From a virus (taxonomy: Duplodnaviria; Heunggongvirae; Uroviricota; Caudoviricetes), in IMG/VR virus record IMGVR_UViG_3300028379_000400, positions 1 through 64,000 of that record: a stretch of DNA of 64,000 bases, one strand, 5' to 3'. Below, piece after piece: positions 40,986 through 58,097 of the stretch. The number at the start of each line of letters is the position of its first letter. The stretch's first letter is position 1. Both the position numbers and the translations under genes were made by a program. Below the pieces are notes generated by a model. The model saw nothing but the letters and a program-made list of their open reading frames with translations. It was not told where the DNA came from and did not search any database.

Positions 40986-40993
40986 CCGGACTC

Positions 40994-41419
40994 CTATTCT
41001 CGCCCACGTTCGGGCAGGTTGTGAATGACATGGGCGGCGCCGTATGCCGCCAGTCCAGCCATGCCTAAGAGCATTGCGTCGGTCATGTCTGGCACGTAGT
41101 CGCGGCGATATCCGTCGCTCCTGGGTGCATTGGCGCGATATCCCGCCATGGCCTTGGCCCTGGCTCTCGCCTGGGCGAATGTCGAGGCAGTGCCGCTGAT
41201 CCGGTCGCCACTGCGGTAGCCGCTACCGTTGAAAGCCCACCAGCGATAGCTGTGACGGGAAAGCCGATGGACACCACCCCACGCCGCCACGCGCTTGTCC
41301 GGCCGGTGCGATAGGCGCCAGCTATATCGTGCGGGCCTGTCCGGTTGACCAGCGACGAACTCGACAGCGGTGCCAACCGACAGGAATGGCGCGGTGAGCG
41401 CTCTTTTGCTCCTCGGCAT
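40994..41419 (-). CDS. basic hypothetical protein with C-terminal hydrophobic helix
   Basis: ORF from MPRSKRALTAP; 3' end overlaps a leader-motif hairpin. Confidence 0.3.
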   Translation of the reverse strand: MPRSKRALTAPFLSVGTAVEFVAGQPDRPARYSWRLSHRPDKRVAAWGGVHRLSRHSYRWWAFNGSGYRSGDRISGTASTFAQARARAKAMAGYRANAPRSDGYRRDYVPDMTDAMLLGMAGLAAYGAAHVIHNLPERGRE

Positions 41420-41736
41420 CAGCGCTTGCTCCGTTCCCGGACGATGTCGGCGACCATGCGAGCGTGCCGGCGAGCGCGAGCCCATGGCGAGGTGTAGATT
41501 TTGAACCAAATCCAGAACCCGACGCCGATCGCGATACCGAAGACCAAGCACCAGAAGAAGAAGGTGACGATCAGCATCAAGGGCCACGCTAGAACCCAGG
41601 CGTAGAGCCACGCGCTATCCCAGTGGAAGACGGCGCCGGTGCCCCCGAGGATGGCGTAGAAGAGCGAGCCAAGGCCAAGGTAGAAGGCCAGCCAGGTGAG
41701 GCCGACGCGGCGCACCACGATCTTGCCCTCAACCAT
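41419..41736 (-). CDS. polytopic small membrane protein
   Basis: three hydrophobic segments. Confidence 0.45.
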   Translation of the reverse strand: MVEGKIVVRRVGLTWLAFYLGLGSLFYAILGGTGAVFHWDSAWLYAWVLAWPLMLIVTFFFWCLVFGIAIGVGFWIWFKIYTSPWARARRHARMVADIVRERSKR

Positions 41737-42061
41737 GCTCGGACTCCTTCATGAGCTTCTCGACCAAGGCTTCGAGATCGGCGACCTTGAGGCTCAGCGC
41801 GAAGATGCGGTCGCGAGCAGCGCAGACGACGGCCTCGTGGGCGCTGTCGATGCGCATCAGCATGCGAACCTGGTTGCCGAGATCGAAATCGTTCTGCTCA
41901 TTGAAGATCGACGGCGCGCGAGCGGCAGTATCGCGGACATCGGTCATCCGCTTCTGGACCTCCGGCGCCGACATATCGGTCGGCCCGCAGGTTTCGGTGT
42001 AGACCATGCCCATACGGGCGAGCAGAGCTTTGTGGGCTGCCAGTTCGGCGGCGTTCATCAT
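41729..42061 (-). CDS. hypothetical protein (110 aa)
   Basis: preceded by leader motif GAGCAACTGTGCTC...GGAGTCCCTGATG. Confidence 0.45.
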   Translation of the reverse strand: MMNAAELAAHKALLARMGMVYTETCGPTDMSAPEVQKRMTDVRDTAARAPSIFNEQNDFDLGNQVRMLMRIDSAHEAVVCAARDRIFALSLKVADLEALVEKLMKESEHG

Positions 42062-42097
42062 CAGGGACTCCTTGTGGTGAGCACAGTTGCTCGGGGT

Positions 42098-42304
42098 TCA
42101 GTCGTTCGAGGGGACGCGACCAGCGTCGAGTTCAGCCGCTTGTCCAGCATCGCGGCAGTAGAGCCGGCCGTTCTGGATGAAGGCGTGGCAGCTCTTGGCG
42201 AAGTCGGCAGGCGTGAAGCGATCCGATGGCTTCAGCCGGCGCCAATGCCACCAATCGCCATCGACGTTCCAGCCGGCACGCGGCTCTGTGGGTCCGTCGG
42301 CCAT
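42098..42304 (-). CDS. small hypothetical protein
   Basis: MADGPTEP start coupled to upstream stop. Confidence 0.3.
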   Translation of the reverse strand: MADGPTEPRAGWNVDGDWWHWRRLKPSDRFTPADFAKSCHAFIQNGRLYCRDAGQAAELDAGRVPSND

Positions 42305-43278
42305 CAGGCACCGACCACGATGTTCTGGCCGTCGCAGCATTCGCGCCAGGTCGAATAGATCGGGGAGTCGACCGCGCCTTCGCTCTCGTCATCATCGCCG
42401 CCGCCAGCCCATGAGACAGCTTCCTTCCACGATCCGAAGGCCTTGGAGTCGTAGATGACATCGCCGTTGTCGCCGCCGCTCACCCAGCCAGCGGCGCGGG
42501 CGGCGGTTTCGTATTTGTTGACCGGCGCGACGTAGGCTTCGCCACGATACGCGGCGAGCGCTTTGGCGGCGATCTGTCCGGTCTCCCAATAGGCCATGGC
42601 GCCGCCGTTGCTCTCGGCATCCTCGGTGCCATTGTATTCCTCGATCTCTGGCTCTTCGGCCGGGCAGCGCGCGGCGATCTCGCCGAGGGCGCCGACCAGA
42701 ATGTGATCGCCGTCGCTGATGTTCGCGGAGAAGGCCGCAAGGATGGCGTCGAGGTCTTTGATGCCAGCCGTGTAGGCGCAATCAGCAGGAATCTCGTCGT
42801 CATCGGCGTAGATGTGCGTCTCGATTGCCTCGGTCAGCAGATCGCGGCTCGTCCGAAGGACAGCAACGACGCCGGGATGAAGCGGAGCAGGTTTCGGCAT
42901 GGTCTCGGGGTCGTAACTGACGCCGCAGGCTTTGAACGCCGTCTCGATAAGCCTTTGCGCCTCGCCCCACGGCTGGCGCTGCGTGGCTGGCCGCTCGATC
43001 TCACCGTTGGCGCAGCGCATGACTGCCCGGAGCGCATCGAGGCAAGCGCGAAGCGGGTCGGTTGTGGGGTAGGGGATCAGCGCGCCGATGTAAGCTGCGT
43101 CGCCTTCCCAGGCGCCGGTCAAGCGGGTCGGGCCGGAGGACTCGATATCCGATTTCTGTCCCTCCCAATCGTCATCTTCGAGGGCGAGCTTCAACGCCTC
43201 CTCGGCGGTCGCGGCCTCGTAGGTGCGGTGACGATAGACGGGCAGATCATAGGTAGCTTCGATGGTGAACTTGGGCAT
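42304..43278 (-). CDS. acidic hypothetical protein (324 aa)
   Basis: leader motif upstream; Asp/Glu-rich. Confidence 0.45.
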   Translation of the reverse strand: MPKFTIEATYDLPVYRHRTYEAATAEEALKLALEDDDWEGQKSDIESSGPTRLTGAWEGDAAYIGALIPYPTTDPLRACLDALRAVMRCANGEIERPATQRQPWGEAQRLIETAFKACGVSYDPETMPKPAPLHPGVVAVLRTSRDLLTEAIETHIYADDDEIPADCAYTAGIKDLDAILAAFSANISDGDHILVGALGEIAARCPAEEPEIEEYNGTEDAESNGGAMAYWETGQIAAKALAAYRGEAYVAPVNKYETAARAAGWVSGGDNGDVIYDSKAFGSWKEAVSWAGGGDDDESEGAVDSPIYSTWRECCDGQNIVVGA

Positions 43279-43316
43279 TGGGGACTCCGTTTGCTGCCAC
43301 TATCGGCAAGGGGTTG

Positions 43317-43586
43317 TCAGATGGTGCGGAAGACGTCGGCGAGCAGCTCGTCGATCTCGTCAGCGGTCAATGGATCGTGGAGACCAGAGTCGGTCGCCTG
43401 GTCGCTGCATTCGTCCATGAAGGCGAAGCCCTTGGCGACGATCACGTCACCACGCAGGATGCCCTGCCAGAGCCGCAGAGCGGCAATGGTGGTCGCTTCC
43501 TGCCGGTTGTTCATCGGCAAGGTTTTGCCCAAGGCGGCGCCGAAGAAGCGCGGCGTCAAGCGACCGATATTGGGAAGGCTCGGCAT
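43317..43586 (-). CDS. hypothetical protein (89 aa)
   Basis: GGAGGA RBS. Confidence 0.4.
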   Translation of the reverse strand: MPSLPNIGRLTPRFFGAALGKTLPMNNRQEATTIAALRLWQGILRGDVIVAKGFAFMDECSDQATDSGLHDPLTADEIDELLADVFRTI

Positions 43587-43790
43587 CTATTTGTCCTCCT
43601 TCGGCGATACCGCGCGCAGCAGATCGGCCATGTTCTTGGCGCCCAGCTTGCGCATGATCCGCGCGCGGTGAACCTCGACGGTGCGAGGGGATAGGCCCAG
43701 CAAGCGGGCGGTTTGCTTGTTGGCGTGCCCGGCAAGGATCAGCGCCAGCACCTCGCGCTCGCGCGGAGTCAATTCCTTCTGGCGTGTCAC
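43587..43790 (-). CDS. LuxR/GerE-type HTH regulator (standalone, 67 aa)
   Basis: [45 protein letters not shown]. Confidence 0.65.
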
Positions 43791-43793
43791 GGC

Positions 43794-44375
43794 TCACGCC
43801 AGCTTGTCGATTTGGGCGAGCAGCTTGTTCGCGGCGTCGATCTGCGGCGGCGCTTCGGCACCTGGCACCCGCATCAATTCCGCCCAAGCGGTCAGATCGC
43901 GAAGGGCAGTCTCAAGCTCTGCGGCAAGCCAGGTTGCGCCCTTATTGTGATCGACAACGGTGCCCGAATAGTCATCGCCATGGCAGTCGTTGTGCTCCAT
44001 TTCGTAGCGGGCAAGGTATTCGGCATGGGCGTGATCCCAAGCGCGTACGGTAGTGCCGAACGTGCCCTGATCGGCCTCGCGGTCGCTCCAGTTGATGACG
44101 AGCGAATGAAGCGAGGTCGGGAGGTCGATGAGCGCAGTCAGGCGGACGATGATAGCATCGGCGCAGTCGTAGACGCGCTTGTTGTCCTCATTGTCGATCC
44201 CGTCATCGCCCATGTTCCGGCCGGCGAAGGCAATCAGGAAGTTTGCCTGCCTAATAGACCTCGGGCTGGCTTTGCCGTGGGCATTGGCCTTCTCGACCAG
44301 GTATTGCAGCAGCTCGACGGTCGGCGATTCTTCGGCATATTCGGACGGCTTGGCGAATGGGAAACCGGTAAGCAT
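43794..44375 (-). CDS. hypothetical protein (193 aa)
   Basis: start MLTGFPF immediately after leader GGAGTCCCAAATG. Confidence 0.45.
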   Translation of the reverse strand: MLTGFPFAKPSEYAEESPTVELLQYLVEKANAHGKASPRSIRQANFLIAFAGRNMGDDGIDNEDNKRVYDCADAIIVRLTALIDLPTSLHSLVINWSDREADQGTFGTTVRAWDHAHAEYLARYEMEHNDCHGDDYSGTVVDHNKGATWLAAELETALRDLTAWAELMRVPGAEAPPQIDAANKLLAQIDKLA

Positions 44376-44418
44376 TTGGGACTCCTCTGTTGCCACAATC
44401 GGCAGGGGTAGGTGGTGT

Positions 44419-44607
44419 TTAGACGGGAAGCGGGTGTCGGCGCTCCCATTCGGCGAAGGCTTCGTCCAGCAAGCGCTTCTCGTTTCTGATGACGAAATCC
44501 GGCATGCCAGCCTCAGTTAGTTCGAGCAGCCGGACTAGGCGGTTCGAGCGGTTGACGATGCGAAGTCGAATGCCAGCGTCAGGCACCTCGGAAAGATCAT
44601 GCGCCAT
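44419..44607 (-). CDS. small hypothetical protein (62 aa)
   Basis: coupled ORF. Confidence 0.35.
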   Translation of the reverse strand: MAHDLSEVPDAGIRLRIVNRSNRLVRLLELTEAGMPDFVIRNEKRLLDEAFAEWERRHPLPV

Positions 44608-45058
44608 CGGCTCGATCCTCGCCGTTGACTAACGCCAATGCCCGCTGGTGCAATTCCGAACCTGCTGCCGCCCGGCGTTCGACAAGGGCGTGCGCAATCA
44701 GATGGTCAGCTAGATTGGTCTCGGAATCCTCGTCGGCAAAGATCACGAGCTGACCATCGCCGCATTCGTTGATGTTCCAGCCTTCGGCAAAGGCAGCGTC
44801 GGCATCGGCAACGGACCAGCCGGGGAAGACTTCGATGCTGGCAGAGACCTTATCGCCATCGGCGACAAGATAGGCCACGTCGACTGGCCCTAATTCGCGG
44901 TGGTCTGACAAGAGGTCATCGACCGAATCCCAGACGACGACACCTGACAGGTGGCCGCCAGATTTGACTTCGAGATATGTCGCAATGTCGGATTTCTCTG
45001 CCTCGGGGAAATTGTCAGTGTCCACGACGAAAGCGGCGACGCACAGTTTCCTGCCCAT
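44597..45058 (-). CDS. acidic hypothetical protein (153 aa)
   Basis: GGAGGG RBS. Confidence 0.4.
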   Translation of the reverse strand: MGRKLCVAAFVVDTDNFPEAEKSDIATYLEVKSGGHLSGVVVWDSVDDLLSDHRELGPVDVAYLVADGDKVSASIEVFPGWSVADADAAFAEGWNINECGDGQLVIFADEDSETNLADHLIAHALVERRAAAGSELHQRALALVNGEDRADGA

Positions 45059-45061
45059 CGA

Positions 45062-45619
45062 TCAGCCCTCCAACTTCATGGCGAGGCAGAGGCCGCCCCA
45101 ATCGTCGGCTCTCCCCTTCCAGATATTGTCGTAACCGTCGCCCGTATCATTTAGGCGGAACTCGCTGGCGGCTTCATCCCAAGCCCAGCCCGCACATTCG
45201 GCAATGGACTGCCAGTTGATTGCTTCGGCGATGGCGTCGCGGGCCTTCTCAACGGAATACCTCTCCCCGAACATGCTGTATGAGCCGGTGGCGGCCAGGT
45301 GAGCATTGGCTTCGGTGTTCTCAAGGTCGGCGATGTCCTTCAGCGCCGCCAGCATGGCAGGCGCGGCGCGGTACGCAGTGGTGTCTGCTGATATCGGCTC
45401 GCCCTCGTGGTCGGGCTCGCTTTCGTCCTCGCAATAGGCGCGGTCGACCTCGGCAGTGGTGAAGCCGACGACGCCGTCGCCATCTTCGTCCACGGGCCAG
45501 CTCGCTTTGTCGCTGTCAGCCTTGGCCCTCTCAAAGGCCTCGGCATAGCTGTCGGCCTCGACGACGATAGTGCCCTTGATCCACGCGATTTGGGCCAGCG
45601 TGACGCTGTAGGTCTTCAT
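45062..45619 (-). CDS. highly acidic hypothetical protein (185 aa), DNA-mimic candidate
   Basis: Asp/Glu-rich composition (DEDGDGVVGFTTAEVDRAYCEDESEPDHEGEP). Confidence 0.45.
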   Translation of the reverse strand: MKTYSVTLAQIAWIKGTIVVEADSYAEAFERAKADSDKASWPVDEDGDGVVGFTTAEVDRAYCEDESEPDHEGEPISADTTAYRAAPAMLAALKDIADLENTEANAHLAATGSYSMFGERYSVEKARDAIAEAINWQSIAECAGWAWDEAASEFRLNDTGDGYDNIWKGRADDWGGLCLAMKLEG

Positions 45620-45622
45620 CGC

Positions 45623-46309
45623 TCAACCCCCCAAGATTTCGGTGACGCGTTTGTCGATCTTGCCGATGGCCTCGTTGACCATCGCGTCGGCGGCCGAACC
45701 GTCAAGCGTCTTGCGCAACTCGGCGCGCCGCGCGGTAAGCGACGCGACCTCGACCTTGTCTGCCTCGTCGCCAGCCTCCATCCACGCCTTGAGGTGGTTG
45801 GCGACAACCTCAGAGACGGAGAGGCCAGGCATGCCTTCGCCGTTGGCGATACCCACGCTGGCCACCAAGGCGCGAATGTCGGCAAGCGGATCGTCATTGG
45901 CCAGCAGCTTGCGGAGCGTCGGCAGGTCGATTGTCGAGTTGTTGCCGTCGCTCGACGCCTCCACGCGACCCGTTGCCGGCGTGTAACCAGCGCTGCCAGG
46001 GCCATAGTCGCCGCCCGATCCCCACCCGAAGTGATATGCGATCTTGTGTTCCTCGCAAACAGCCTCGACCTCGCTGATGTTGCCATAGTTGACCTCTTCC
46101 GCGTTGAAGCTGATGCTGGATGCGACGGCCTCTCCGCCGACCGCCTCTGCGATTGCCGCCTTGATGCCGTCGGCGTCGCCAGCGTGGAAATCCGATCCGG
46201 CGTCCGGCTGCATCCAGCGCCCGGCCATCGCCTCGCAGAACTCTTCAAGAGCCTCCACGGTCTCGATATGGCCGGATAGTACGAAACTGACGTTGGTGCG
46301 GTCACCCAT
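45623..46309 (-). CDS. hypothetical protein (228 aa)
   Basis: divergent leader motif upstream. Confidence 0.45.
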   Translation of the reverse strand: MGDRTNVSFVLSGHIETVEALEEFCEAMAGRWMQPDAGSDFHAGDADGIKAAIAEAVGGEAVASSISFNAEEVNYGNISEVEAVCEEHKIAYHFGWGSGGDYGPGSAGYTPATGRVEASSDGNNSTIDLPTLRKLLANDDPLADIRALVASVGIANGEGMPGLSVSEVVANHLKAWMEAGDEADKVEVASLTARRAELRKTLDGSAADAMVNEAIGKIDKRVTEILGG

Positions 46310-46381
46310 TGGGGTTCTCCTGTATGGTGATTGGGGAAGGGCAGGGCGCTCAGCACCCCGCCAATAGCTCAGGACGGGCGA

Positions 46382-47644
46382 CTAGACCCGCATGGGCATA
46401 AGGACGGCCAGCCAGCCTTCGCGGCCTTCGCCGGTCACGACAGTCGGCGAACCAGCGTCATTGAACAGCATGGTCACTTCGTCGGAACGGGCCTCGGTAA
46501 CCAGGTCGGTGAGATAGCGGGCATTGAAGCCGATCTCGAACGACTCCGGCATTTGCTCGCCCGGGACGATTGCGAGGGGTACGGCCGACGATCCCATGTC
46601 GGGGTTGTTGCAGATCAGCGTGAGCTTGCCGCCCTCGAACGAAAGTTTGACCGCCTTGCCGCCGCGTTCCGATGCCACCAGCCCGGCCGCCTTGATCGCG
46701 GCGAGAGCGTCGGCGGCCTTGAACGTGACCGCCTTGTCATTGTTTTTCGGCGTGACACGCTCGTAATCGGGGAATGTTCCATCGATCATTTTGGACGTGA
46801 CTGTCACGCCATCCCAATGCAGCCGCATGAAGCGCTCGTGGACCTCGATTTCGACGGTCTCCGGCCGCGCCTTGCCCTTCATGAGCTTCACCAGAAGGGC
46901 GACCGTCTTTTTGGGGATGATGATGCCCGGCATGCCGATTGCGCCGTCTGGCGCCGTGATTTCGCTTCTCGCCATGCGATGGCCGTCAGTGGCCGTGCAG
47001 CGAAGCTCCGGCCGGTTGCGACCCGACGGCGTGACGACGTGCATATAGACGCCATTGAGATAGTACCGGGTCTCCTCATTTGAGACCGCGAACTCGACGG
47101 CGTCGAGCGAGTCAAAAAGCTCGATGCCAGAGAGGCTGAAGCGGTGCGTGAACTCGCCGGGCTTCAGTGCCGGGAACCCTTCTGACGGCAGAGCCGCCAT
47201 CTGGTAAGTGGCCGTGGCGAAATCGACATCGACCGCGCCGTCGAACGTGATGATGGTTTCCGTCGCGTCGGGGACGTTCTCGCCCTTCTCGATATCGAAT
47301 TTCCAACGCGTGACGCGTTCCACGGCCTTGGACGGTGGCATGGTGAAGGCGACGTATTCGGCCTTGGGCGCGCCCTTCAGCAATTGCTTCAGCATCAGCG
47401 CTGGCACGGTCACGTCGAACCGCTCATCGGCCGGCGCGGGCACGGCAACGTCGATCACGATATCGAGGTCGGTGCTCGTGACGAAAAGCATGTTGCCGTC
47501 GCCGCGAAGGCGGACGTTGGCAAGAATGGGGTAGGTGTTGCGACGCTCAACGATCTCCTCCGCGATCTCGACGGCGCGAGTCAGGGCGACGCGGTCGGCG
47601 ACGGCGGAAGCAAGGGCAGCGGAAGCAAGGGCAATGGCGGTCAT
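46382..47644 (-). CDS. dnaN: second DNA polymerase III beta sliding-clamp homologue
   Basis: RRNTYPILANVRL, three-domain clamp pattern, C-terminal LMPMR; leader motif upstream. Confidence 0.8.
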   Translation of the reverse strand: MTAIALASAALASAVADRVALTRAVEIAEEIVERRNTYPILANVRLRGDGNMLFVTSTDLDIVIDVAVPAPADERFDVTVPALMLKQLLKGAPKAEYVAFTMPPSKAVERVTRWKFDIEKGENVPDATETIITFDGAVDVDFATATYQMAALPSEGFPALKPGEFTHRFSLSGIELFDSLDAVEFAVSNEETRYYLNGVYMHVVTPSGRNRPELRCTATDGHRMARSEITAPDGAIGMPGIIIPKKTVALLVKLMKGKARPETVEIEVHERFMRLHWDGVTVTSKMIDGTFPDYERVTPKNNDKAVTFKAADALAAIKAAGLVASERGGKAVKLSFEGGKLTLICNNPDMGSSAVPLAIVPGEQMPESFEIGFNARYLTDLVTEARSDEVTMLFNDAGSPTVVTGEGREGWLAVLMPMRV

Positions 47645-47700
47645 ATGGGACTCCTTTGGCGCTCACAATCGAGCAGGGGAAACAGGGAGACGGCAGGCGA

Positions 47701-47868
47701 TCAGGCGGCGGTACTAACCGCGCCGACGACAGATGACGTAAGCAACGGCACAAGCGCGCCGGGGAAGCGGATGGTGGTGACGCCGCCAAGCATGAAGCCG
47801 GACAGAAAGGCGGCAACGCACGCCACAAGTGCGCACGTCACGGCGGTATCGGGGATGAAGCGGTGCAT
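47701..47868 (-). CDS. 55-aa membrane peptide
   Basis: found by reading minus strand (MHRFIPDTAVTCALVACVAAFLSGFMLGG...); preceded by leader motif; not in track. Confidence 0.3.
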   Translation of the reverse strand: MHRFIPDTAVTCALVACVAAFLSGFMLGGVTTIRFPGALVPLLTSSVVGAVSTAA

Positions 47869-48081
47869 CTACAGGTACTCCATGAGCGCTCACAATCGAG
47901 CAAGGGTTTGGCACTTTGGCAGTTCCCGCCTCCGGCGATTTGGCCGGTCAATCTTTTCCACTATCTCCCGCACCTGGCGGGCAACCCGTTCAATCCAGAG
48001 TCAGGGGGAAGCTACTTCATTCTGACCTCCCTAATGCGTCAGCAGTTTCGGCAGATCGGCAGCGCCTTGAACCGGCGCCGA

Positions 48082-48100
48082 TGTGTAATTTAATTGCACA
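48082..48100. promoter_or_regulatory. 19-bp palindromic operator TGTGTAATTTAATTGCACA
   Basis: near-perfect inverted repeat at head of leftward operon. Confidence 0.5.
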
Positions 48101-48114
48101 ATCGGCGATTCGTG

Positions 48115-48874: not shown

Positions 48875-48917
48875 TCGGGGACTCCATGAATGCCCACAAT
48901 CGGGCGAGGGCAGGCGG

Positions 48918-50483: not shown

Positions 50484-50528
50484 AGCAGGGACTCCGAGAG
50501 CGCCCATGATCGGGCAAAGGGCAAGCGG

Positions 50529-51117: not shown

Positions 51118-51320
51118 CACGACTCCAGCCATTCGTGCTTGCGGGCGATAGCCTGGCGGCGCGCCATACGGCGGGCGCGGCCTTCGGGGCGCTTGCTGAA
51201 CGGCTCGCCGTGGCGCGGCCCATGCTGGCGCAGGTTCACTTTGACGCCAAGCCCGGCAAGGTGGTGCTCAAGGCTGACGGCCATTGTGCGCAGCAGTTTG
51301 CCTTCAATCGGGTGGTTCAT
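51117..51320 (-). CDS. small basic protein (67 aa)
   Basis: leader motif upstream. Confidence 0.35.
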   Translation of the reverse strand: MNHPIEGKLLRTMAVSLEHHLAGLGVKVNLRQHGPRHGEPFSKRPEGRARRMARRQAIARKHEWLES

Positions 51321-51400
51321 CTTGGGACTCCTCTAGTGCTCACAATCGAGCGGGGCGGCTTGTTGCCGTATCGGCGGCGCATTGCGCCGCCTAGGCTGCA

Positions 51401-51688
51401 TCAAGCGACGTTGACGGCCAGATATCTGGAATAGCCAGACGTTGCCGCCTTGAAGCCAGCGGGCGAGCGCTGGCCCGGCGCAAGATCAACAACACATGCC
51501 AGCGGCTTGCCGGTTGCCTTGGCCTCGGCTGCATAGGCGTCACGGGCGGCGATGGCCTCGGCAGTGTTGCGGACTTCCATGTCGCGCGGGGCGAACTCGT
51601 CAGGCTTGCCGGTAAGATCGAAGACGACAGAAAAGCGCCCGCCGCCGCTGGCCTTGGCAGGGTATGAATGAAGGCGGATTTTGACCAT
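51401..51688 (-). CDS. hypothetical protein (95 aa)
   Basis: start MVKIRLHSYP after leader motif. Confidence 0.4.
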   Translation of the reverse strand: MVKIRLHSYPAKASGGGRFSVVFDLTGKPDEFAPRDMEVRNTAEAIAARDAYAAEAKATGKPLACVVDLAPGQRSPAGFKAATSGYSRYLAVNVA

Positions 51689-51731
51689 TTGGGACTCCTC
51701 ATTGCTCACAATCGAGCGGTTGCAGGCGGGA

Positions 51732-51914
51732 TCAGTAGCCGCCCGCCATAGAGCGCAGCAGCGGACCGGCCTTCGCGCGGTATTGCGCCTTGGCTTCGAG
51801 CGCAGCGGTCTCGCGAATCTTGCGGGACAGTTCTGCGCGTTCGAACTTGTCGGTGGTGCCGCCTAGCTGTGTGCGAAGGGCTTTCAGGACGGCGGCGGTT
51901 GGCAGCTTTGCCAT
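51732..51914 (-). CDS. small hypothetical protein (60 aa)
   Basis: start MAKLPTAAV after leader motif. Confidence 0.35.
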   Translation of the reverse strand: MAKLPTAAVLKALRTQLGGTTDKFERAELSRKIRETAALEAKAQYRAKAGPLLRSMAGGY

Positions 51915-51989
51915 ATCAGGGACTCCGTTAGCGCTCACTGTCGAGCATGGGGAGAGTAGAAACCTGTTCGCGTCGGCGGTCAAGAAAAA

Positions 51990-52008
51990 TGTGCAATAAA
52001 CTTGCACA
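51990..52008. promoter_or_regulatory. 19-bp palindromic operator TGTGCAATAAACTTGCACA
   Basis: perfect 7-bp arms; abuts stop of upstream operon. Confidence 0.5.
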
Positions 52009-52374
52009 CTATTGCTGTTTCTCGAATAGGTGTGCGGCGCCTGAATTGACGATCAACGCGGCGCCGCGCTCATCAGCAATGGCGTCGTTTATCCAGATAT
52101 CGCGATAGTCGGTCGCCGGCTCATAAACTCCGTCTATCGTCCAATAGCCGAGGTTAAGAATATCCTCGGTGCCGGTCTGCGCCGGAAGGCCATGGGACGC
52201 GAGGAACGAATTGAACTCGGCAATGTCGATCCGGGCGATTTTTAGGTAGCCCTGATTCGGGTCGGGATCGGCTTCATCGAAATCGATGCCGGGGGCATAG
52301 TTCAGCACTTCGCCAGTGGCCAGATCGCAGGTCATCTCTCCCCAATTGCCTGTCACGAGAATTGTATCGGCCAT
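52009..52374 (-). CDS. hypothetical protein (121 aa)
   Basis: variant leader GCGCGATCATGCGC...GGAGTTAC. Confidence 0.4.
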   Translation of the reverse strand: MADTILVTGNWGEMTCDLATGEVLNYAPGIDFDEADPDPNQGYLKIARIDIAEFNSFLASHGLPAQTGTEDILNLGYWTIDGVYEPATDYRDIWINDAIADERGAALIVNSGAAHLFEKQQ

Positions 52375-52465
52375 CGAAGTAACTCCGGTTGTGGCGCATG
52401 ATCGCGCGGGCGGTGACTGTCACCAGTGGAGCGGGCGCGCGGCGCGCTCGCTCGGCTGATATCAG

Positions 52466-53302
52466 CTAAAGGCTGGCGATGAACGCCAAGGCCTTGACGG
52501 CTAGCGCGTCACCTTTTGCCGCTTGTGCCTCGACATGGATTCTGGCGTCGTCATCGCTGGCAAAAATCGGCTCGCCGTCGCCTTCGGGGCAAAACTCGTG
52601 CATGTCGTCAACGCGCTCGATACCGCCAGCCATGAACCAGCCCTGCACGCCTGCCGCATGCATGTCATCAGCCGTCCAACCACTTTCGCGGGCGGCTTTG
52701 CGCTCGGCCTGGCATGCATGCTCTGCCGTGCTGGCGTAGCGGTAACCGTCGGATGCGGTGGCGTCGGTTTTGCGCCATTCGCTTTGCTCGGTTTCCCAAT
52801 ACCAGCCCGCCGCCTTGGCCGCCGCGACATAGATCGGATTTTCGGGCGCGGGATCTTGCTCGTCGTCGCCTTCGTCGTCTTCGGCTACCTCTTCCGCATT
52901 CATCGCCAGCGCGCTCCGGAACATGGCCTTGGGATCGCCGCCTTGCCGCCGGATCAAATGGGCCATGTTGCAAAGTAGGTCGCCGATAGCGTCTTCGTCA
53001 TCGGTCCGGCAAACCCCTTGAAAGGCGCTTACGGCGGCTTGCGCAAATTCGGCCCGGTCGGCATTGGTGGGCGTCATCATGCCCAGCGAATGCAGCGCGT
53101 GCGGCACGGTTTCCATGTCGGGGACAACGGCAGCATCGGTCACCATAAAATCGGTGTCATTGGACAGGGCATAAAGGCCGTCGGCAACAACCTGCCACGC
53201 CGCCCGGCTAGCGATTGGGCAGGCGTTGTCAAGGTTGCGCTCGACAAACGCAGCCACATCAAACGCGGCGCTGCTATCGATCAAGGCGAAGGTCTTTTTC
53301 AT
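52466..53302 (-). CDS. acidic hypothetical protein (278 aa)
   Basis: leader motif; DDEGDDEQDPAPENP stretch. Confidence 0.45.
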   Translation of the reverse strand: MKKTFALIDSSAAFDVAAFVERNLDNACPIASRAAWQVVADGLYALSNDTDFMVTDAAVVPDMETVPHALHSLGMMTPTNADRAEFAQAAVSAFQGVCRTDDEDAIGDLLCNMAHLIRRQGGDPKAMFRSALAMNAEEVAEDDEGDDEQDPAPENPIYVAAAKAAGWYWETEQSEWRKTDATASDGYRYASTAEHACQAERKAARESGWTADDMHAAGVQGWFMAGGIERVDDMHEFCPEGDGEPIFASDDDARIHVEAQAAKGDALAVKALAFIASL

Positions 53303-53433
53303 GGTCGGACTCCATCATGCGCACCATTGCGCGGGGGATTGGCCTTTGCGGCCAGCTAGGCCGGGCAGGGACGCCCGGCTTGGCTTGCGGCAAGGGTAGG
53401 GACGGGCGCGCGGTCGCGCCCGCCACGGGGCAG

Positions 53434-54852
53434 CTAGAGCCGCCCGATATAGACCGGGTCACCAAAGGGAACGGCGGCGGCGAGGCTGGCGAATTTTCGG
53501 CTATCGCCATGCGTTGCCCAAAGGACCGGGCAGGCAGGCTCCTCCCCAAAGTCACTAACCTCTAGGTCGGTTAGGTAGACAACGGCGCTGGCGTCCGGGG
53601 CGTTGGCCTCGATCCACTCAAAGGTATTGCGGAAGGCGGTGCCGCCGCCGCCCGCTAGCGTCAATTCTACGGTATCGCCAACCGTGAACTCGGCGACGCT
53701 GCAAACCCGCGTGTCTGCCATTAGGACGGTAAGCCGGGCAAACTTGCCGGACTCCATCGCGCCGACAATTTCGGCGGCGGCGTTGTTGACCATGTCGGCG
53801 GTTATCGAACCGGACGTGTCGACGGCAAAGACGACATGCGACAAGCCGTCGACAACAGCGCCGGGCAAATACACGCCAGCGTGCACAAAGCGGCGATTGG
53901 GGCGGGCAAACGAATAGTCGAATGACACGCGGGAATCGATCCAGTTCGCCAGCAAGTCGCGCCAATCGGCAACGGGCGTTGCAAGGTCCGTCACAAGCTC
54001 TTGCAGATAGCCCGGAACGCTTCCGGCTTGCGCCTTGGCGACGTTGACGGCTTGGCGGGTCCAAACCTGCCATTGGTCGGCGCTCGCCTCGCTTTCCACC
54101 TGCCCGCCTTCCGGTGCGATAACCCCGCCCATGCCGTGCGCGTCGCGGCTATCGTTCCCCGGCGCTGGCGCGCCTTCCGGCTGGCCTTCCGCGCCGCCGC
54201 CTTGTGACTGCCCGTCCGGCTGGCCAGCGCCTTCAGCGCCCGCGCTATCGCCGCCGCCTTCCGCGTCACCCTCGCCCGCTTCGCTATCTGCGCCAGCGTC
54301 TCCCGGTTCGGACGCGTCGCCCTCGCCAGCGTCGGCGGTCTCGCCGTCGCCCGCCTCGCTTTCGCCTTGTCCGGATTCGCCCTGGCTGGCGTCCGCCTCG
54401 CCGTCGCCCTCTTCGGGTTGCTCTTGCGGTTTGGTCTCGGCGGCAGTCAACAGGGCGTAAACCTCTTCCGCGCCCATGCCACGAAATGCCGGGTCCAAGA
54501 GCATACCGCGCGGCATGGTGAACCCGGCCGCGATCAGGTCGGGATTGATGCAATAATCAGCCGCCCGGTTGAAGCGCTCAAGGTCACGGTTGCCAATGCG
54601 GGCATGGTGACGATAGGCGCAATGCGAGACCTCGTGCGCGACTAGGAAAATGCATTCCGCCTCGCTTAGGCTTTCGATAAAGGCGGGCGCGTAGAAAAGG
54701 GACGCGCCGTCGGTCGCCATTGTGGCCGTCTTGTCCGGCCGTGCCGCCACGGCAAGGTGTAGGGCGAGGCAACCATAAAACGGTTGCGACGTGACTAGCC
54801 GGGTCCGCGCCAAGGTCACGCGGTCGGCGGCGTTGAGGCCTTGCCAGTTCAC
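53434..54852 (-). CDS. VWA-domain protein with N-terminal HExxH metallopeptidase-like domain (DUF2201-type)
   Basis: HEVSHCAYRHH; MIDAS VVFAVDTSGSI; acidic Gly/Glu/Asp linker; GTG start overlapping MoxR stop. Confidence 0.7.
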   Translation of the reverse strand: MNWQGLNAADRVTLARTRLVTSQPFYGCLALHLAVAARPDKTATMATDGASLFYAPAFIESLSEAECIFLVAHEVSHCAYRHHARIGNRDLERFNRAADYCINPDLIAAGFTMPRGMLLDPAFRGMGAEEVYALLTAAETKPQEQPEEGDGEADASQGESGQGESEAGDGETADAGEGDASEPGDAGADSEAGEGDAEGGGDSAGAEGAGQPDGQSQGGGAEGQPEGAPAPGNDSRDAHGMGGVIAPEGGQVESEASADQWQVWTRQAVNVAKAQAGSVPGYLQELVTDLATPVADWRDLLANWIDSRVSFDYSFARPNRRFVHAGVYLPGAVVDGLSHVVFAVDTSGSITADMVNNAAAEIVGAMESGKFARLTVLMADTRVCSVAEFTVGDTVELTLAGGGGTAFRNTFEWIEANAPDASAVVYLTDLEVSDFGEEPACPVLWATHGDSRKFASLAAAVPFGDPVYIGRL

Positions 54853-55853
54853 AGCGTCACCGCCTGATTACGGTGCGCCCAGTCCACATAAGCGCCGGTC
54901 TCGCAAAGCGCCTTGTCCCGCTTCACCGCGTCAACGGCGGTTACAATCTCGAACTCTTTCGGCAGGCGGCGGGCATAGGCCAGCACGTTGTCAAACGTCG
55001 TCACGCTGGCTTTGCGGGCGAGGGCGGTTGATACCGCGTAAAGCGCCGACGGGTTTGACGGTACGGGCGCGCCGTGCGGGTCCGCTATGATTGCCTCTAG
55101 CCGGGGAAGCTCTTCCGCGATTTCCGCAAAGGCTTCAAATTCGGCGGCGACGGTATCGCCGACTAGGCCAGCTATCAGGGCATGCCGGACGGCAAGCGGC
55201 TGGCCAACAAACTTGGCGGCGCGTTCCCATGCCCGTGGCGACGGGAAGGCTAGTTCATCGGCTGGCGCTGGCGTGGCGCGGTCCATCGTTTCGACGTGTA
55301 GCAGCGCCGGGCGGAATTTGAGAAACCCGGCTATCAGCGGATGAACGCCAGCCGTTGCCGCCCATGCCTGCCATGCCTCGGGATCAACCGCGACGTTCAG
55401 GTGTAGGAATCGATTGGCCAGCGCGCCCGAAATCTTGTTTGTGCCGGTCCGGTCGGTTTTGCCGTTGCCCGCCGCAATGACGCGCACGCTATCGGGGAGG
55501 GCATGCTCGCCAATGCGCCGATCTAGGACGATTTGCAGCGCCGCCGCCATGACGGCCGGACTCGCCCGGTCCATTTCGTCAAAAAACAGGATTGTTTCGC
55601 GCGACGGGTCGGACGGCCAAATTGCCGGTTTCAGCCAAACCGTTTCCCCGTTCACGGCGGCGGGCAAGCCGCGCAAGTCGACGGGGTCAAACATGCTCAA
55701 CCGGATATCGGCCAGCGTCGCGCCACGCCGCTTGGCAAGGGCCTTGATAACGTCCGATTTGCCTACGCCCGGCGCGCCCCAAACAAAGGGCGGGACGTTG
55801 GCGTCTAGGGCGGCGTTGACAGCCTCAACAGCGGCGGAAAGCTTCAGTTTCAT
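54849..55853 (-). CDS. MoxR-like AAA+ ATPase
   Basis: Walker A VWGAPGVGKS, Walker B ILFFDEMDRA; leader motif upstream. Confidence 0.75.
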   Translation of the reverse strand: MKLKLSAAVEAVNAALDANVPPFVWGAPGVGKSDVIKALAKRRGATLADIRLSMFDPVDLRGLPAAVNGETVWLKPAIWPSDPSRETILFFDEMDRASPAVMAAALQIVLDRRIGEHALPDSVRVIAAGNGKTDRTGTNKISGALANRFLHLNVAVDPEAWQAWAATAGVHPLIAGFLKFRPALLHVETMDRATPAPADELAFPSPRAWERAAKFVGQPLAVRHALIAGLVGDTVAAEFEAFAEIAEELPRLEAIIADPHGAPVPSNPSALYAVSTALARKASVTTFDNVLAYARRLPKEFEIVTAVDAVKRDKALCETGAYVDWAHRNQAVTL

Positions 55854-55919
55854 AGTGGGACTCCACATTGCGCACTAGCGCGCGTCACGCCGCCGGGCGA
55901 ACCGGCGGCGACACTCGTG

Positions 55920-56828
55920 CTAGGCCATATAGGCGGAAACGTCGTCAACGATTGCCGCCGCCGCCTTGGCGATTTCAGCGCGGGCGCTGGCATCATCCCG
56001 CAAGGCTTCCGCGTCATACCGGCAAAGCGCCGTCATGCGGTCCGCCACGCTGGCCAGCAACGGGTCATTGGTAATGTTGAGGGACGGCAACAGCGCGGCG
56101 AGCTCACGGACATTCTCAACAAGCGAGTCCCGGAAGATTGCCGCCAGCTTGTCGCCCTTGTCATTTTCGCGGGTCTCGGCGAGCTTGGTAGCCATGTGGC
56201 CCACCTTGTCGCAAACCCGCTTGAAAACGTCGCCCATGGCGTCGCCAATCGCCTTGTCAGTGCGCGCCTTGATATCGGCGCGGATTGCTTCCGCCGCCGC
56301 CTCGCCGACATCAACGCGGAAGTCGTCGGCGTCCGGCATAGGCATAATCGAGTAACCGAAAGAGAACCGGGCGGCGATTTCCGACGGGTCGGGATAATCC
56401 TCCGCCTTGAACATGCCATTAAGCCGCGCCTTGGCAGCATCAACATATGCGCTGTAGCCAGCCGAGAAACTGGCCACGGCGGCGTCAAACTTCGCCTTGT
56501 GCTTTTGCATCGCTGCGGCATAGGCCAGGTATCCCTTGGCGCTAAGAATGCGCGACCCGTTGTCAAACCATGGCGCGGTCCGGGCGTAATGGTCGTCACG
56601 CGCTTCGCCCGCCACCTTGTTGATTTCGGCCAGCGCGTCGCGGCTCAAAAGCGCCTTGTTGTACCGGCCAGCGTCGGCGCTCGCCCCATGGTCGCGGTTG
56701 ACTTCATCGGTCACCTGCCGGTCAAGCTTCCGGCCGGACCATGCCGTGATGTTGACGGCGGCAATCATCGCCTTTTCGGAAATGGCAGAACGCGCGGTGG
56801 GCGTGGCGTTGGCAATGTGCATGTTCAT
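55920..56828 (-). CDS. hypothetical protein (about 302 aa)
   Basis: start MNMHIANATP after leader GGAGTCCGACTATG. Confidence 0.45.
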   Translation of the reverse strand: MNMHIANATPTARSAISEKAMIAAVNITAWSGRKLDRQVTDEVNRDHGASADAGRYNKALLSRDALAEINKVAGEARDDHYARTAPWFDNGSRILSAKGYLAYAAAMQKHKAKFDAAVASFSAGYSAYVDAAKARLNGMFKAEDYPDPSEIAARFSFGYSIMPMPDADDFRVDVGEAAAEAIRADIKARTDKAIGDAMGDVFKRVCDKVGHMATKLAETRENDKGDKLAAIFRDSLVENVRELAALLPSLNITNDPLLASVADRMTALCRYDAEALRDDASARAEIAKAAAAIVDDVSAYMA

Positions 56829-56914
56829 AGTCGGACTCCGGTTTGATCGCCCATGATCGGGCAGGTTGGCTAGTCGCCAGTGTTGCCCGCGACGCGCGCG
56901 GGCAAGGCTTCCGA

Positions 56915-57220
56915 CTAGAACGCGACAGGCACGACGGCGGGCAGGGAGGGCGCGCAATAGGCGTCAACGGCTGGCAACGGCTGGCCGGTCTCGCTTGTGG
57001 CCACGGTCGGGAACGGCGCTTCCCAAATCGCATGCATTGCCGCGCGGCAAGCGTCGGCGGGCATAGGGTCGGACATGCGCAAGGCATGCCCGCCCTTGGC
57101 GTTGAGTATCAGGGTAAGGCGCAACAGCGTCGGCGCGGCGGAAACGCCCGCCAGCGCGCCGCCAAGTGTCACGGCGAGGCCGATAGCGGCAACGGCAAGG
57201 GTTGAAGTTGTCCGGGTCAT
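56915..57220 (-). CDS. small exported/membrane protein
   Basis: MTRTTSTLAVAAIGLAVTLGGALAGVSA signal-like N-terminus. Confidence 0.35.
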   Translation of the reverse strand: MTRTTSTLAVAAIGLAVTLGGALAGVSAAPTLLRLTLILNAKGGHALRMSDPMPADACRAAMHAIWEAPFPTVATSETGQPLPAVDAYCAPSLPAVVPVAF

Positions 57221-57224
57221 TTGC

Positions 57225-57373
57225 TGACTCCGAAAATGGCGCACGTGGCCAACGTGACGACGGCCAGTCCGCCAAAGAACGTGGAAGCGACAAGCCAGTC
57301 GGACATGGCCAGATAGGCGTTGATTGCGTTTTCGAGCGCCACCAAGGGGCGCAGAATCTTGTTCATGGCGCGC
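57225..57373 (-). CDS. 49-aa membrane peptide
   Basis: MNKILRPLVALENAINAYLAMSDWLVASTFFGGLAVVTLATCAIFGVSK; read manually, not in track. Confidence 0.25.
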
Positions 57374-57374
57374 C

Positions 57375-57572
57375 TCAGCAATTTTCAAGTTGTTCGGCGA
57401 AGGCGAGCGCTTCGGCCGCTTGCTTGGCGAATTGCGCGGACATGCCCGCGTCGCACAGTTCGGCGGACCATTCGTTCCACTTGGCGGCGCTGCTACGGCA
57501 AATGTTGGCGAGCGTCCAACGGGTTTCCTCCGGGATTAGCTCTAGGGCAGCGGCGGGCAGTTCTTTCTGCAT
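57375..57572 (-). CDS. small hypothetical protein (65 aa)
   Basis: start MQKELPAAAL after leader motif. Confidence 0.35.
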   Translation of the reverse strand: MQKELPAAALELIPEETRWTLANICRSSAAKWNEWSAELCDAGMSAQFAKQAAEALAFAEQLENC

Positions 57573-57658
57573 TTGGGACTCCTCAATGCGCACAATCGCG
57601 CGGGGTTAGGCGTCTAGAGCCTAGTAGGACGCGCCACGCGGGCGCGCCCGGCTAGAGG

Positions 57659-57829
57659 CTAGGCGAAGTAACGGGCTATCGCCGCCAGCGCGTCCGCCTC
57701 ACAATCGAACAAGCCCCATGACTTGAGCCGTTGCGTTCCATGGCTGACATGCCAGCGACGCGCGAGGCGATCAAACCCGGTCACGAGACTGCCGGGCGCA
57801 TAGAGCTTGAGGTTGAGCAGGGTTTCCAT
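57659..57829 (-). CDS. small hypothetical protein (57 aa)
   Basis: METLLNL start with GAGGG RBS. Confidence 0.25.
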   Translation of the reverse strand: METLLNLKLYAPGSLVTGFDRLARRWHVSHGTQRLKSWGLFDCEADALAAIARYFA

Positions 57830-57839
57830 TGACGCGCCC

Positions 57840-58013
57840 TCAATAGCCAAGCCACGCCAGCACGGCGCTGGCGCGGTACGTGGCACGGTCGCCGCACTCG
57901 GCAAGAAACAGGGCGATTGATTCGGCGTCGTCAACGCCATGGCGTGCAAGCTCTTGCAGGGCGCGGGCTTTGGTGATCGTCACGCCACTTGCGGACTCGG
58001 AATAGGTGCACAT
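57840..58013 (-). CDS. small hypothetical protein (57 aa)
   Basis: MCTYSESASGV... preceded by leader GGAGTCCCGTGAATG; read manually. Confidence 0.25.
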   Translation of the reverse strand: MCTYSESASGVTITKARALQELARHGVDDAESIALFLAECGDRATYRASAVLAWLGY

Positions 58014-58078
58014 TCACGGGACTCCAATCGGTCGCGCACAATCGCGCATTGCGCACATGCTCATAGTTCGCCGCATTT

Positions 58079-58097
58079 GGCAAGCGCTTGTGCAAAG
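58079..58097. promoter_or_regulatory. 19-bp palindromic operator TGTGCAAAGATATTGCACA
   Basis: perfect 7-bp arms at head of leftward operon. Confidence 0.5.

Follow-up and report, generated by a model that had tools for sequence, protein, structure and literature searches.

The DNA analysed here is a 64,000-nucleotide stretch (the window), positions 1 to 64,000 of the IMG/VR virus record IMGVR_UViG_3300028379_000400. It contains a short repeated leader, the cassette, in which two complementary arms precede the Shine-Dalgarno (SD) sequence and start codon of successive genes in an early block. The window is almost wholly a phage-type mobile element, encoding DnaB, a primase, an SNF2 helicase, two DnaN proteins, three DNA methyltransferases, a DUF5131 protein and a RecD-like helicase, together with a Cro/CI-type and a LuxR-type helix-turn-helix (HTH) protein. 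The backbone of the early block consists of genes for DUF3150, a MoxR-like AAA protein, DUF2201 (VWA/metallopeptidase), a DUF4942 methylase and a DnaN-like clamp. Three AT-rich gaps, at about 58110, 52005 and 48100, hold sigma-70-like CTTGAC-N17/18 sequences overlapped by TGTGCAA-N5-TTGCACA palindromes (Table 1). To judge by their sequence, these sites are likely to be regulated promoters, and the palindromes are likely to be operators of the Cro/CI-type HTH protein encoded at 58699-58890 on the minus strand. The operator/promoter gaps split the early block into at least 3 operons and, since the likely regulated promoters lie in these three gaps, most copies of the cassette are inside operons.

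On the minus strand between 40983 and 58055, 17 copies of the cassette, each about 40 bases long, precede almost every independently translated early gene of this alphaproteobacterial prophage. Each consists, in order, of 4-5 C-rich bases, a 4-bp G+C stem, a 6-nt loop, the closing arm, a 5-9 nt spacer that is A/C-rich and G-poor, the SD sequence GGAGUCC(C), a further 2-5 nt, and ATG. The loops follow the consensus R-A-N-N-R-U. GAUUGU is commonest (8-9 copies), and GAUCAU, GAUAGU, GACAGU, GAACGU, AAUGGU, AACUGU and GCUAGU also occur; the preliminary description, drawn up from the letters of the window, had listed these correctly apart from GAUAGU and GCUAGU, which it missed. Across the 17 copies, the SD lies 5-9 nt from the 3′ end of the hairpin and the ATG 5-9 nt from the SD, and the distance from the 3′ end of the hairpin to the ATG is 15-20 nt, with a mean of 17. 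The SD was said to stay fixed, and in this genome it largely does, with variants at 52375 (GGAGUUA) and 47869 (GGAGUAC), but relatives keep the hairpin with other SD contexts. Nearly all of the positions first reported carry the element when the minus strand is read; the exception, at 46310, lacks a hairpin although a C-rich tract and an SD are present. A distant copy near 6831-6880 is real but altered, with a 5-nt loop and an additional inserted hairpin.

The cassette is strongly enriched in the early block. The window contains 20 GGAGTCC sequences, where 8.5 +/- 2.8 would be expected, and 17 of them lie on the minus strand within 40.9-58.1 kb. A strict scan, requiring 4 Watson-Crick pairs, a 6-nt loop, 4-12 nt and GGAGT, found the minus strand to hold 17 true copies between 41015 and 58047, with essentially none elsewhere in the window; in dinucleotide shuffles it found 2 on average and 6 at most. 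The 17 copies scored 36-51 bits under a covariance model derived from them, which added two further window copies, the altered distant one and one on the plus strand that the preliminary description had missed (Table 1), and the overall count is put at 17-20 copies in at least 3 operons. Sixteen of the block's 17 gaps of 36 nt or more bear a cassette, in keeping with the proposal that it belongs to non-overlapping cistrons. The 17th copy (41015) overlaps the end of the upstream open reading frame (ORF) rather than a gap, its hairpin lying inside the 3′ end of that ORF and the ORF's TAG stop codon overlapping the SD. Overlapping or nearly abutting junctions never have a cassette. The earlier observation that coupled genes lack it thus holds, though 3 coupled genes use GGAGUC as their SD. 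The orientation of the cassette is always that of its gene, opposite-strand copies included. Start codons reassigned with the help of the element were partly upheld: that of the DUF3150 gene fits an independent gene call (302 aa), and 48874 should read 48875. An Rfam scan of the window at gathering thresholds matched a tmRNA only and no family corresponding to the cassette, and a permissive scan (E up to 5) of 40.9-58.2 kb gave no match.

We then asked of the alignment whether the two arms are maintained as partners. One test does not depend on pairing: at 15 sites, GGAGTCC follows an intergenic gap and stands ahead of an ATG, and each of them has a perfect 4-bp stem in an identical register. 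All 85 stem cells of the 17 copies are paired, 16 of them departing on both sides from the commonest pair. Five stem types account for this variation: GCGC/GCGC (5-6 copies), GCUC/GAGC (5), GCCC/GGGC (4), UGCC/GGCA (2) and GAGC/GCUC (1, at 42092). The covariation score is 0.544 against 0.123 in shuffled controls, none of 500 shuffles reaching it, a kind of control that the preliminary description had itself proposed. Sliding one partner by 1-3 columns reduces pairing to 19-65% of cells, and de novo folding with RNAalifold recovers the identical 5-pair hairpin, with no second helix and with the SD and start codon unpaired. Intramolecular pairing of the cassette arms is under selection, because both arms change together, which a dimeric protein bound to duplex DNA would not enforce. 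The earlier view of a structured, base-paired element joined to a conserved SD, as opposed to a protein half-site on duplex DNA, is borne out. Loop positions one and six form G.U in 15 of the 17 copies and A-U in the other 2, and this loop-closing combination may be a true fifth stem pair.

The hairpin itself is marginal, with 4-5 bp and a predicted stability of -4 to -6 kcal/mol. The predicted accessibility of the SD is 0.38 with the hairpin intact and 0.42 when the stem is broken in silico; stem breakage does not lower it, which counts against a purely thermodynamic role, and an 'insulator' as the sole function of the hairpin was rejected. Two other pairings were considered and set aside. 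The C-tract has no consistent complementarity to the SD, judged by eye and by the RNAalifold result, and the loop shows none, by eye, to the 3′ tail of 16S rRNA.

Related loci were found through the DnaN-like protein in IMG/VR, through DUF3150 homologues and through a family of small Arg-rich proteins discussed below. Eleven related Hyphomicrobiales prophage lineages share the DUF3150, AAA, DUF2201, DUF4942 methylase and DnaN backbone at 35-60% amino acid identity, with unrelated, lineage-specific ORFans in between. Two of the loci adjoin a lambda-type (GpA) terminase gene, one of them also a portal gene, which identifies the relatives' loci as true prophages. Culturable lysogens with such a relative include Pseudorhizobium banfieldiae NT-26 (FO082820.1, 1372771-1393679) and Mesorhizobium sp. 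L-8-10 (AP023263.1, 5475660-5496583). Each lineage has its own version of the cassette in front of non-overlapping genes and oriented with them (Table 1), with 5-11 copies each in L149, L151, L153-L156, L158, L159, L133-135 and L140; these counts come mostly from leader listings, those for L151 and L154 being regular-expression counts. In the hexaloop lineages, 5-9 copies compare with at most 0.4 in shuffles, and conserved post-hairpin motifs occur 10 times against 1.7 expected and 7 times against 0.3, without exception on the sense strand. Nine lineages keep a hairpin at the orthologous site preceding dnaN, with 8 different stems among them. Loop and flanks are uniform inside one genome and differ among genomes, stems vary freely, and the UCCC extension of the SD is specific to the window, being absent in relatives that retain the hairpin. 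The hairpin is the constant feature across the prophage family, and loops and flanks that are uniform within and different between genomes are the pattern that co-evolution with a lineage-specific reader would predict. The observation is thus extended from one genome to a prophage family, and the original structural reading is confirmed.

An exact pattern, CGATTGTGNGC-N5-9-GGAGTCC, was of limited use for searching other genomes: in genome and viral collections it gave single chance matches, and true copies seem to be present only in L095, a Hyphomonadaceae metagenome-assembled genome, and L098. No phage or plasmid record matched the DNA at near identity. The only DUF3150 protein matches there were to cyanophages at 30% identity and, at 33%, to plasmids of betaproteobacteria or Rhodovastum. 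The cassette is missing from a plasmid-borne DUF3150-AAA-VWA locus, so it goes with the prophage family rather than with the DUF3150 module.

Sequence features of promoters or terminators were sought around the cassettes. Upstream of them there is no conserved -35/-10 and no conserved base beyond 5 nt, the only conserved feature being the 4-5 C-rich bases, and no U-tract accompanies the copies. A scan with consensus promoters and terminators over 40000-59500 (19.5 kb) gave nothing meaningful at cassettes and no terminator-like match at any copy; the sole promoter-like match in this interval overlaps copy 17 and is taken as chance. An intrinsic terminator needs a stable G+C hairpin followed by a U-tract, whereas the weak cassette hairpin is followed by an A/C-rich spacer and the SD. 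On these features the cassette is neither a promoter nor an intrinsic terminator, and the unconventional promoter offered among the initial possibilities is not supported, promoters lying elsewhere. The first hairpin comes just after the predicted transcription start both in L151 and in the window, where it is that of the copy at 51946. A sigma-54-type -24/-12 reading of TGGCAC in the relatives was rejected, there being no TTGC at -12 by eye. A link between the TGTGCAA operators and the loop sequence UUGUG was dismissed as coincidence, no similar operator being seen in L151.

The nearest described system is that of the start-associated sequences (SAS and ESAS) of Cluster K mycobacteriophages, of which the window element is not a member. 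SAS, known since 2011 (PMC3203893), are 13-bp SD-containing repeats present in 11-19 copies before early genes, about half of them with an inverted repeat just upstream, and their function was still unknown in 2025 (PMC3203893, PMC11373665, PMC12699233). Like them, the cassette is a multi-copy, SD-containing repeat a few bases before the start codon of early, non-structural genes of temperate siphophages, and in both its conservation exceeds the part that pairs with rRNA (GGAG-CCC in SAS, GGAG-UCCC in the window). In the window, 15-17 copies, confined to the early block, have GGAGUCC(C) at a distance of 2-5 nt from the ATG. The UCCC cannot extend pairing with the 3′ end of 16S rRNA. Cluster K hosts are Actinobacteria as against Hyphomicrobiales here, and the repeats have no sequence relationship: the SAS consensus GGGATAGGAGCCC, allowed up to 3 mismatches, has 23 matches in the window against 20 +/- 5 expected, none systematically at gene starts. 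ESAS consist of two imperfect 17-bp inverted repeats with a spacer and SigA-like -35/-10 hexamers, and are now read as a SigA promoter plus operator (PMC11373665). Their 17-bp arms are imperfect and non-compensatory, in contrast to arms of 3-5 bp with perfectly compensatory changes, a loop of 4-6 nt and no promoter hexamers in the cassette.

Small hairpins in early phage RNA offer a second set of parallels. The boxB of lambdoid nut sites has a G+C stem of about 5 bp and a conserved 5-6-nt loop, is bound by the arginine-rich motif of N, and differs in its loop between phage lineages together with the peptide that reads it. The size and covariation of the window hairpin fit such a small G+C stem with a conserved loop in early RNA, but its loop is neither purine-rich nor GNRA-like. 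Nut sites occur once per early operon, with boxA and in no fixed relation to a start codon; in contrast, the cassette has 17-20 copies, a fixed distance to the ATG and no CGCUCUUA-like boxA that we could see. In the MS2 and PP7 coat-protein operators and in Mu Com-mom, a small hairpin at or near the SD is bound by a small phage protein, and translation is repressed or activated. Those are single sites per genome, whereas the cassette is multi-copy and its hairpin excludes the SD and AUG. One phage factor acting on many early ribosome-binding regions recalls T4 RegA and RegB, the RegB site being an extended intergenic GGAG, but the T4 sites are unstructured and A/U-rich, and structure inhibits RegB (PMC3014915). 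The RegB target GGAG(R)AYARAA also differs from the window in its 3′ context, which here is UCCC and not A-rich, and no RegA or RegB homologue was detected among the block genes scanned (all except five small ORFs, given below). As repeated intergenic regulatory cassettes flanking variable ORFans in hyperplastic early regions, the PeSL motifs are also similar; they combine an early sigma-70 promoter with a terminator-like stem-loop, whereas the cassette has neither and includes the SD (PMC2839356, PMC4122927). A limited literature search, which is not proof of absence, found no description of this cassette. The element looks like an undescribed, structurally defined form of the start-associated repeat phenomenon, one that would act through RNA control of translation.

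The preliminary description had named four mechanisms without choosing among them, and the data favour a translation-linked RNA recognition element. In particular, we tentatively prefer, at somewhat less than an even chance, a sense-strand mRNA leader whose recognition hairpin is read by a lineage-specific factor and which acts on translation. A role for the sense mRNA in translation initiation is suggested by the selection for pairing, the coupling to start codons, the location inside operons, the lack of promoter and terminator features and the position of the first hairpin at the predicted 5′ end in two genomes. A recognition hairpin is favoured because freely varying stems combined with lineage-specific, fixed loops and flanks fit a site read by a co-evolving factor. 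The cassette would then serve those cistrons of a lambda-like prophage that start translation independently within polycistronic early transcripts. At 15-20 nt before the ATG, the base of the hairpin would mark the 5′ edge of the mRNA stretch covered by the 30S subunit, the extent of the ribosome footprint placing the hairpin at that edge or just beyond it, on the mRNA exit side of the bound subunit. A factor specific to the phage lineage, most obviously a small RNA-binding protein, would bind the hairpin beside the SD, and its binding would co-regulate translation of all cassette-bearing early genes in the manner of a T4 RegA-type global translational regulator, but by way of a boxB- or MS2-operator-like hairpin.

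The early operons encode one candidate for such a factor, which we regard as a lead and not as evidence. This is a 67-aa protein with the C-terminal sequence EPFSKRPEGRARRMARRQAIARKHEWLES, whose own gene stands behind a cassette (Table 1). Micro-proteins of 39-67 aa sharing the motif GRxRRxxRRxxIAxK plus an aromatic residue (in longer form ...EPF(S/A)KRxEGRARRxxRRxxIARKxxW) are encoded in the same operons of at least 6 of these prophages, those of the window and of L149 (9844), L153 (9805), L155 (9491), L158 (3353) and L159 (6728), the forms in L149 and L153 being 39 aa long, and the family is small in a library of 1.8 billion proteins. They were found in a screen for Arg-rich products limited to called genes, a six-frame screen being swamped by spurious ORFs of GC-rich DNA. 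The micro-protein may bind RNA. It differs from N, which joins an N-terminal arginine-rich motif to NusA- and RNA polymerase-binding regions, in having a C-terminal motif, a length of 39-67 aa and no NusA- or RNA polymerase-binding part. A bolder proposal, which we consider rather doubtful, is that the cassettes are operators of a new post-transcriptional regulon in which the micro-protein binds boxB-like hairpins and switches translation of early genes on or off, loop and peptide co-evolving in each lineage; in a variant of it, a micro-protein tethered to RNA polymerase might renew antitermination at each gene. If true, a recognition pair of the N-peptide/boxB type would here have been turned to the control of translation across the whole genome.

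Several points weigh against a factor-read mRNA leader. We infer action at the RNA level only from the position of the cassette. The wobble evidence on strand is ambiguous: the loop-closing G.U in 15 of 17 copies favours sense RNA, the frequent outer C..A of the relatives corresponds to U.G on the antisense strand, and both signals may merely mirror the composition of flank and loop. G.U wobble was ambiguous in a wider survey too, and was dropped as a strand indicator. When 110 nt of surrounding sequence are folded with it, the mean probability of the hairpin is only 0.45. Alignment A2 contains relatives picked for at least 3 pairs, which makes their percentage paired circular. As to the micro-protein, it was not found within +/-10 kb in the cassette-bearing L151, L154, L156, L133-135 and L140, it has no Pfam or PHROG match and no family annotation, and the loop type shows no obvious tracking of its sequence. 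Its motif recalls the arginine-rich helices by which lambdoid N proteins bind boxB hairpins, but such a likeness is not a test.

Could the cassette work in cis, with no phage factor? In such a module, which we think unlikely though well worth weighing, the hairpin would dock on the 30S platform or mark a standby site, or, at a primary or processed 5′ end, protect the transcript from 5′-end-dependent decay while the SD gives protection by ribosomes, as in the '5′ hairpin plus ribosome-binding site' stabilisers of the ompA or aprE type. With a constant 15-20 nt between it and the ATG, the hairpin comes to lie where the ribosome footprint ends, the first copy lies within a few nt of a predicted transcription start in two genomes, the A/C-rich, G-poor spacer is unstructured, and RNAalifold leaves the SD and start codon unpaired, all as expected. 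Stabilisation or exposure by folding energy is not supported, because the hairpin is weak, forms with a probability of 0.45 and leaves the accessibility of the SD unchanged when broken. A host ribosome or RNase as the reader predicts the same loop in phages of related hosts, yet loops and flanks are lineage-specific, and internal copies would need cleavage just upstream, where only the 4-5 C-rich bases are conserved. Cleavage is central to another proposal, in which an endoribonuclease reads the hairpin and/or the extended SD (GGAGUCCC) and thereby cuts early RNA or shuts off early genes, as T4 RegB acts at GGAG in early translation-initiation regions (PMC3014915). The extension of the SD by UCCC that cannot pair with 16S rRNA resembles RegB's long consensus (PMC3014915), 8 of the 17 gaps have a strong U-less G+C hairpin upstream that could be a 3′ stabiliser of the preceding unit, and the cassette is confined to one early block. 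Nonetheless, we judge a processing or inactivation site improbable: no hairpin is required at RegB sites, which structure inhibits (PMC3014915), the UCCC extension is missing from relatives in which the hairpin is retained, and no RegB-, RelE-, barnase-like or other nuclease domain was found among the block genes scanned, which excluded five small ORFs (44419-44607, 43317-43586, 42098-42307, 41729-42061 and 41419-41736). A Pfam scan of the block's small ORFs, with the same five excepted, found nothing.

Two further explanations were weighed. As an evolutionary linker, a 35-40-nt portable cassette would give short recombination homology through which ORFans are swapped between backbone genes, as proposed for the PeSL motifs of T4-type phages (PMC2839356, PMC4122927). 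The backbone conserved at 35-60% identity, with intervening lineage-specific ORFans each bearing its own cassette, fits this scheme, but recombination homology needs no complementary arms, yet pairing is perfect, the variation of the stems lowers homology, and the SD together with its fixed distance to the start codon points to expression. We regard this explanation as very improbable, and gene shuffling as more likely a by-product of the cassettes. Least likely of all are readings at the DNA level, to which we give hardly any credence: an unconventional promoter, either an N4-like hairpin in single-stranded DNA or an ESAS-like promoter plus operator, or an epigenetic GANTC mark. In support of these, SigA promoters are now believed to form part of ESAS, the nearest analogue (PMC11373665). 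The GAGTC within GGAGTCC is a GANTC (CcrM-type) site; the window has 148 such sites where 325 are expected, a depletion of about 2.2-fold, yet 18 of the block's 48 fall in SD positions, those of 15 cassettes and of the coupled genes 57231, 51126 and 41747. Against them stand the lack of conserved promoter elements upstream, the variation of hairpin-to-SD spacing by 4 nt, the presence elsewhere of sigma-70-like promoters with operators, and the complementary changes in the arms, which are not expected at a binding site on duplex DNA. To our knowledge, a 4-bp stem is also too short for extrusion from duplex DNA. Most relatives have no GANTC in the cassette, and the CcrM/GANTC explanation of the UCC extension was rejected as not general. 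The N4 hairpin promoter has a 5-7-bp stem and a 3-nt loop on single-stranded template DNA and is used by a giant virion RNA polymerase; the cassette differs in its 4-bp stem and 6-nt loop, the relatives are lambda-like with GpA terminase and portal genes, and the 64-kb window, beyond which the rest of the prophage lies, encodes no N4-type polymerase.

SAS-type start-codon repeats of temperate phages have been unexplained since 2011, and the window element provides an independent and structurally cleaner case, its hairpin proven by covariation and set at a constant place beside the ribosome-binding site, with well over 100 copies across at least a dozen Hyphomicrobiales lineages (Mesorhizobium, Pseudorhizobium, Aurantimonas, Alsobacter and metagenomic relatives), whose individual loops and flanks amount to natural specificity-swap experiments. 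If a factor reads the cassette, it would represent a new phage route to post-transcriptional co-regulation of an early gene set. For annotation, the cassette fixes start codons and flags real small ORFan genes, and it may serve as a compact, portable translation-initiation part for alphaproteobacteria.

Table 1. Cassette copies and other features of the window (upper rows), and forms of the cassette in related prophage lineages (lower rows).
Feature	Positions	Strand	5′ bases and hairpin	Spacer (nt)	SD or post-hairpin sequence	ATG	Remarks
Copy 1	58011-58055	-	GCGC-GAUUGU-GCGC	8	GGAGUCCC	58013	39 bits; first gene after operator/promoter gap at ~58110
Copy 2	57570-57609	-	CCCC GCGC-GAUUGU-GCGC	5	GGAGUCCC	57572	49 bits
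Copy 3	56826-56870	-	GCCC-GAUCAU-GGGC	9	GGAGUCCG	56828	DUF3150 gene
Copy 4	55851-55891	-	GCGC-GCUAGU-GCGC	5	GGAGUCCC	55853	AAA/MoxR-like ATPase
Copy 5	53300-53340	-	CCCC GCGC-AAUGGU-GCGC	5	GGAGUCCG	53302	
Copy 6	52372-52415	-	GCGC-GAUCAU-GCGC	7	GGAGUUAC	52374	variant SD
Copy 7	51912-51954	-	GCUC-GACAGU-GAGC	6	GGAGUCCC	51914	begins ~8 nt past -10 of CTTGAC-N18-TCTACT promoter
Copy 8	51686-51725	-	GCUC-GAUUGU-GAGC	5	GGAGUCCC	51688	
Copy 9	51318-51359	-	CCCC GCUC-GAUUGU-GAGC	6	GGAGUCCC	51320	67-aa Arg-rich micro-protein gene
Copy 10	50481-50523	-	GCCC-GAUCAU-GGGC	6	GGAGUCCC	50483	DUF4942 methyltransferase
Copy 11	48873-48913	-	GCCC-GAUUGU-GGGC	6	GGAGUCCC	48875	
Copy 12	47866-47909	-	GCUC-GAUUGU-GAGC	6	GGAGUACC	47868	variant SD
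Copy 13	47642-47682	-	CCCCU GCUC-GAUUGU-GAGC	6	GGAGUCCC	47644	DnaN-like clamp; 50.6 bits
Copy 14	44373-44412	-	CCCC UGCC-GAUUGU-GGCA	5	GGAGUCCC	44375	
Copy 15	43276-43316	-	CCCCU UGCC-GAUAGU-GGCA	6	GGAGUCCC	43278	
Copy 16	42059-42100	-	CCCC GAGC-AACUGU-GCUC	7	GGAGUCCC	42061	
Copy 17	40983-41023	-	GCCC-GAACGU-GGGC	7	GGAGUCCG	40985	
Degenerate site	46307-46350	-	C-rich tract, no hairpin		GGAGAAC	46309	absent from strict scan
Altered distant copy	6827-6880	-	GGGC-AUUGU-GCCC (5-nt loop)		GGAGUCCCAAAUG		inserted CCGGC-UUCG-GCCGG hairpin; 14 bits
Added copy	25704-25743	+	CCCC GCGG-AAAUGU-CCGC	AACUAA	GGAAUCC, GU	25741	20.5 bits, E ~1.5e-4
TGTGCAA-N5-TTGCACA palindromes	51990-52008; 58089-58107; ~48094-48125						
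Palindrome half-sites	58983; 59005; 19522						
Candidate trans factor	51117-51320	-					67-aa protein; lead only; gene behind cassette
L159			GCCC-GAUUGU-GGGC		GGAGAUUGAA		11 copies
L151			variable stems, loop RAYYGU		cuGAAAC-GGAA		9 (+) and 3 (-)
L156 (Aurantimonas)			CCCC-GCC-AAUCGU/AAUUGU				
L154 (Pseudorhizobium banfieldiae), L133-135, L140			CCC-GCC/CGC/UGC-AAnCAU		AACCAC-GGAGA		9 in L154
L149			(U)GGG/GGC-AAUnAU		CCACAACCG-AGGAA		7 copies
L158			GGC/GGGC-AAUUGU				
L153 (Mesorhizobium)			GGGC, 4-5-nt loop, GCCC		UAACC-AGGAG		10 copies
L155 (Alsobacter)			CCGGA-ACG-UCCGG		CAACCUGGAGCA		

Eight of the gaps, those upstream of the copies at 57601, 56862, 55883, 53332, 52407, 51717, 51351 and 47674, also contain a strong G+C hairpin of 7-9 bp between the preceding stop codon and the cassette. 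Some of these hairpins have UUCG or GCAAA loops, a U-tract follows none of them, and for the unit upstream they may act as 3′ stabilisers or as Rho-related end points. In the low-GC lineage L158, a second and different leader repeat, AAUAUGGCUCU..., precedes 5 consecutive genes at 6300-8670 (+), downstream of the region that uses the GGC-AAUUGU-GCC cassette.

Other features of the window lie outside the cassettes. A two-piece alphaproteobacterial tmRNA gene at 59120-59498 (+) was identified with RF01849 at 110 bits and was missed by ARAGORN; it is flanked by phage-like genes, among them an RNA-ligase-like gene at 59768-60601 and a phrog_1735 gene at 62115-63899. Of the two DNA polymerase III beta-clamp genes, both on the minus strand, that at 13312-14424 is canonical (370 aa), and that at 46382-47644 is divergent (420 aa), has an N-terminal extension and is a member of the conserved prophage backbone. 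The DUF2201 protein encoded at 53434-54852 (-) has metallopeptidase-like and VWA domains, and at about 54100-54460 a long, acidic, Gly/Glu/Asp/Ala-rich low-complexity insert lies between the two.

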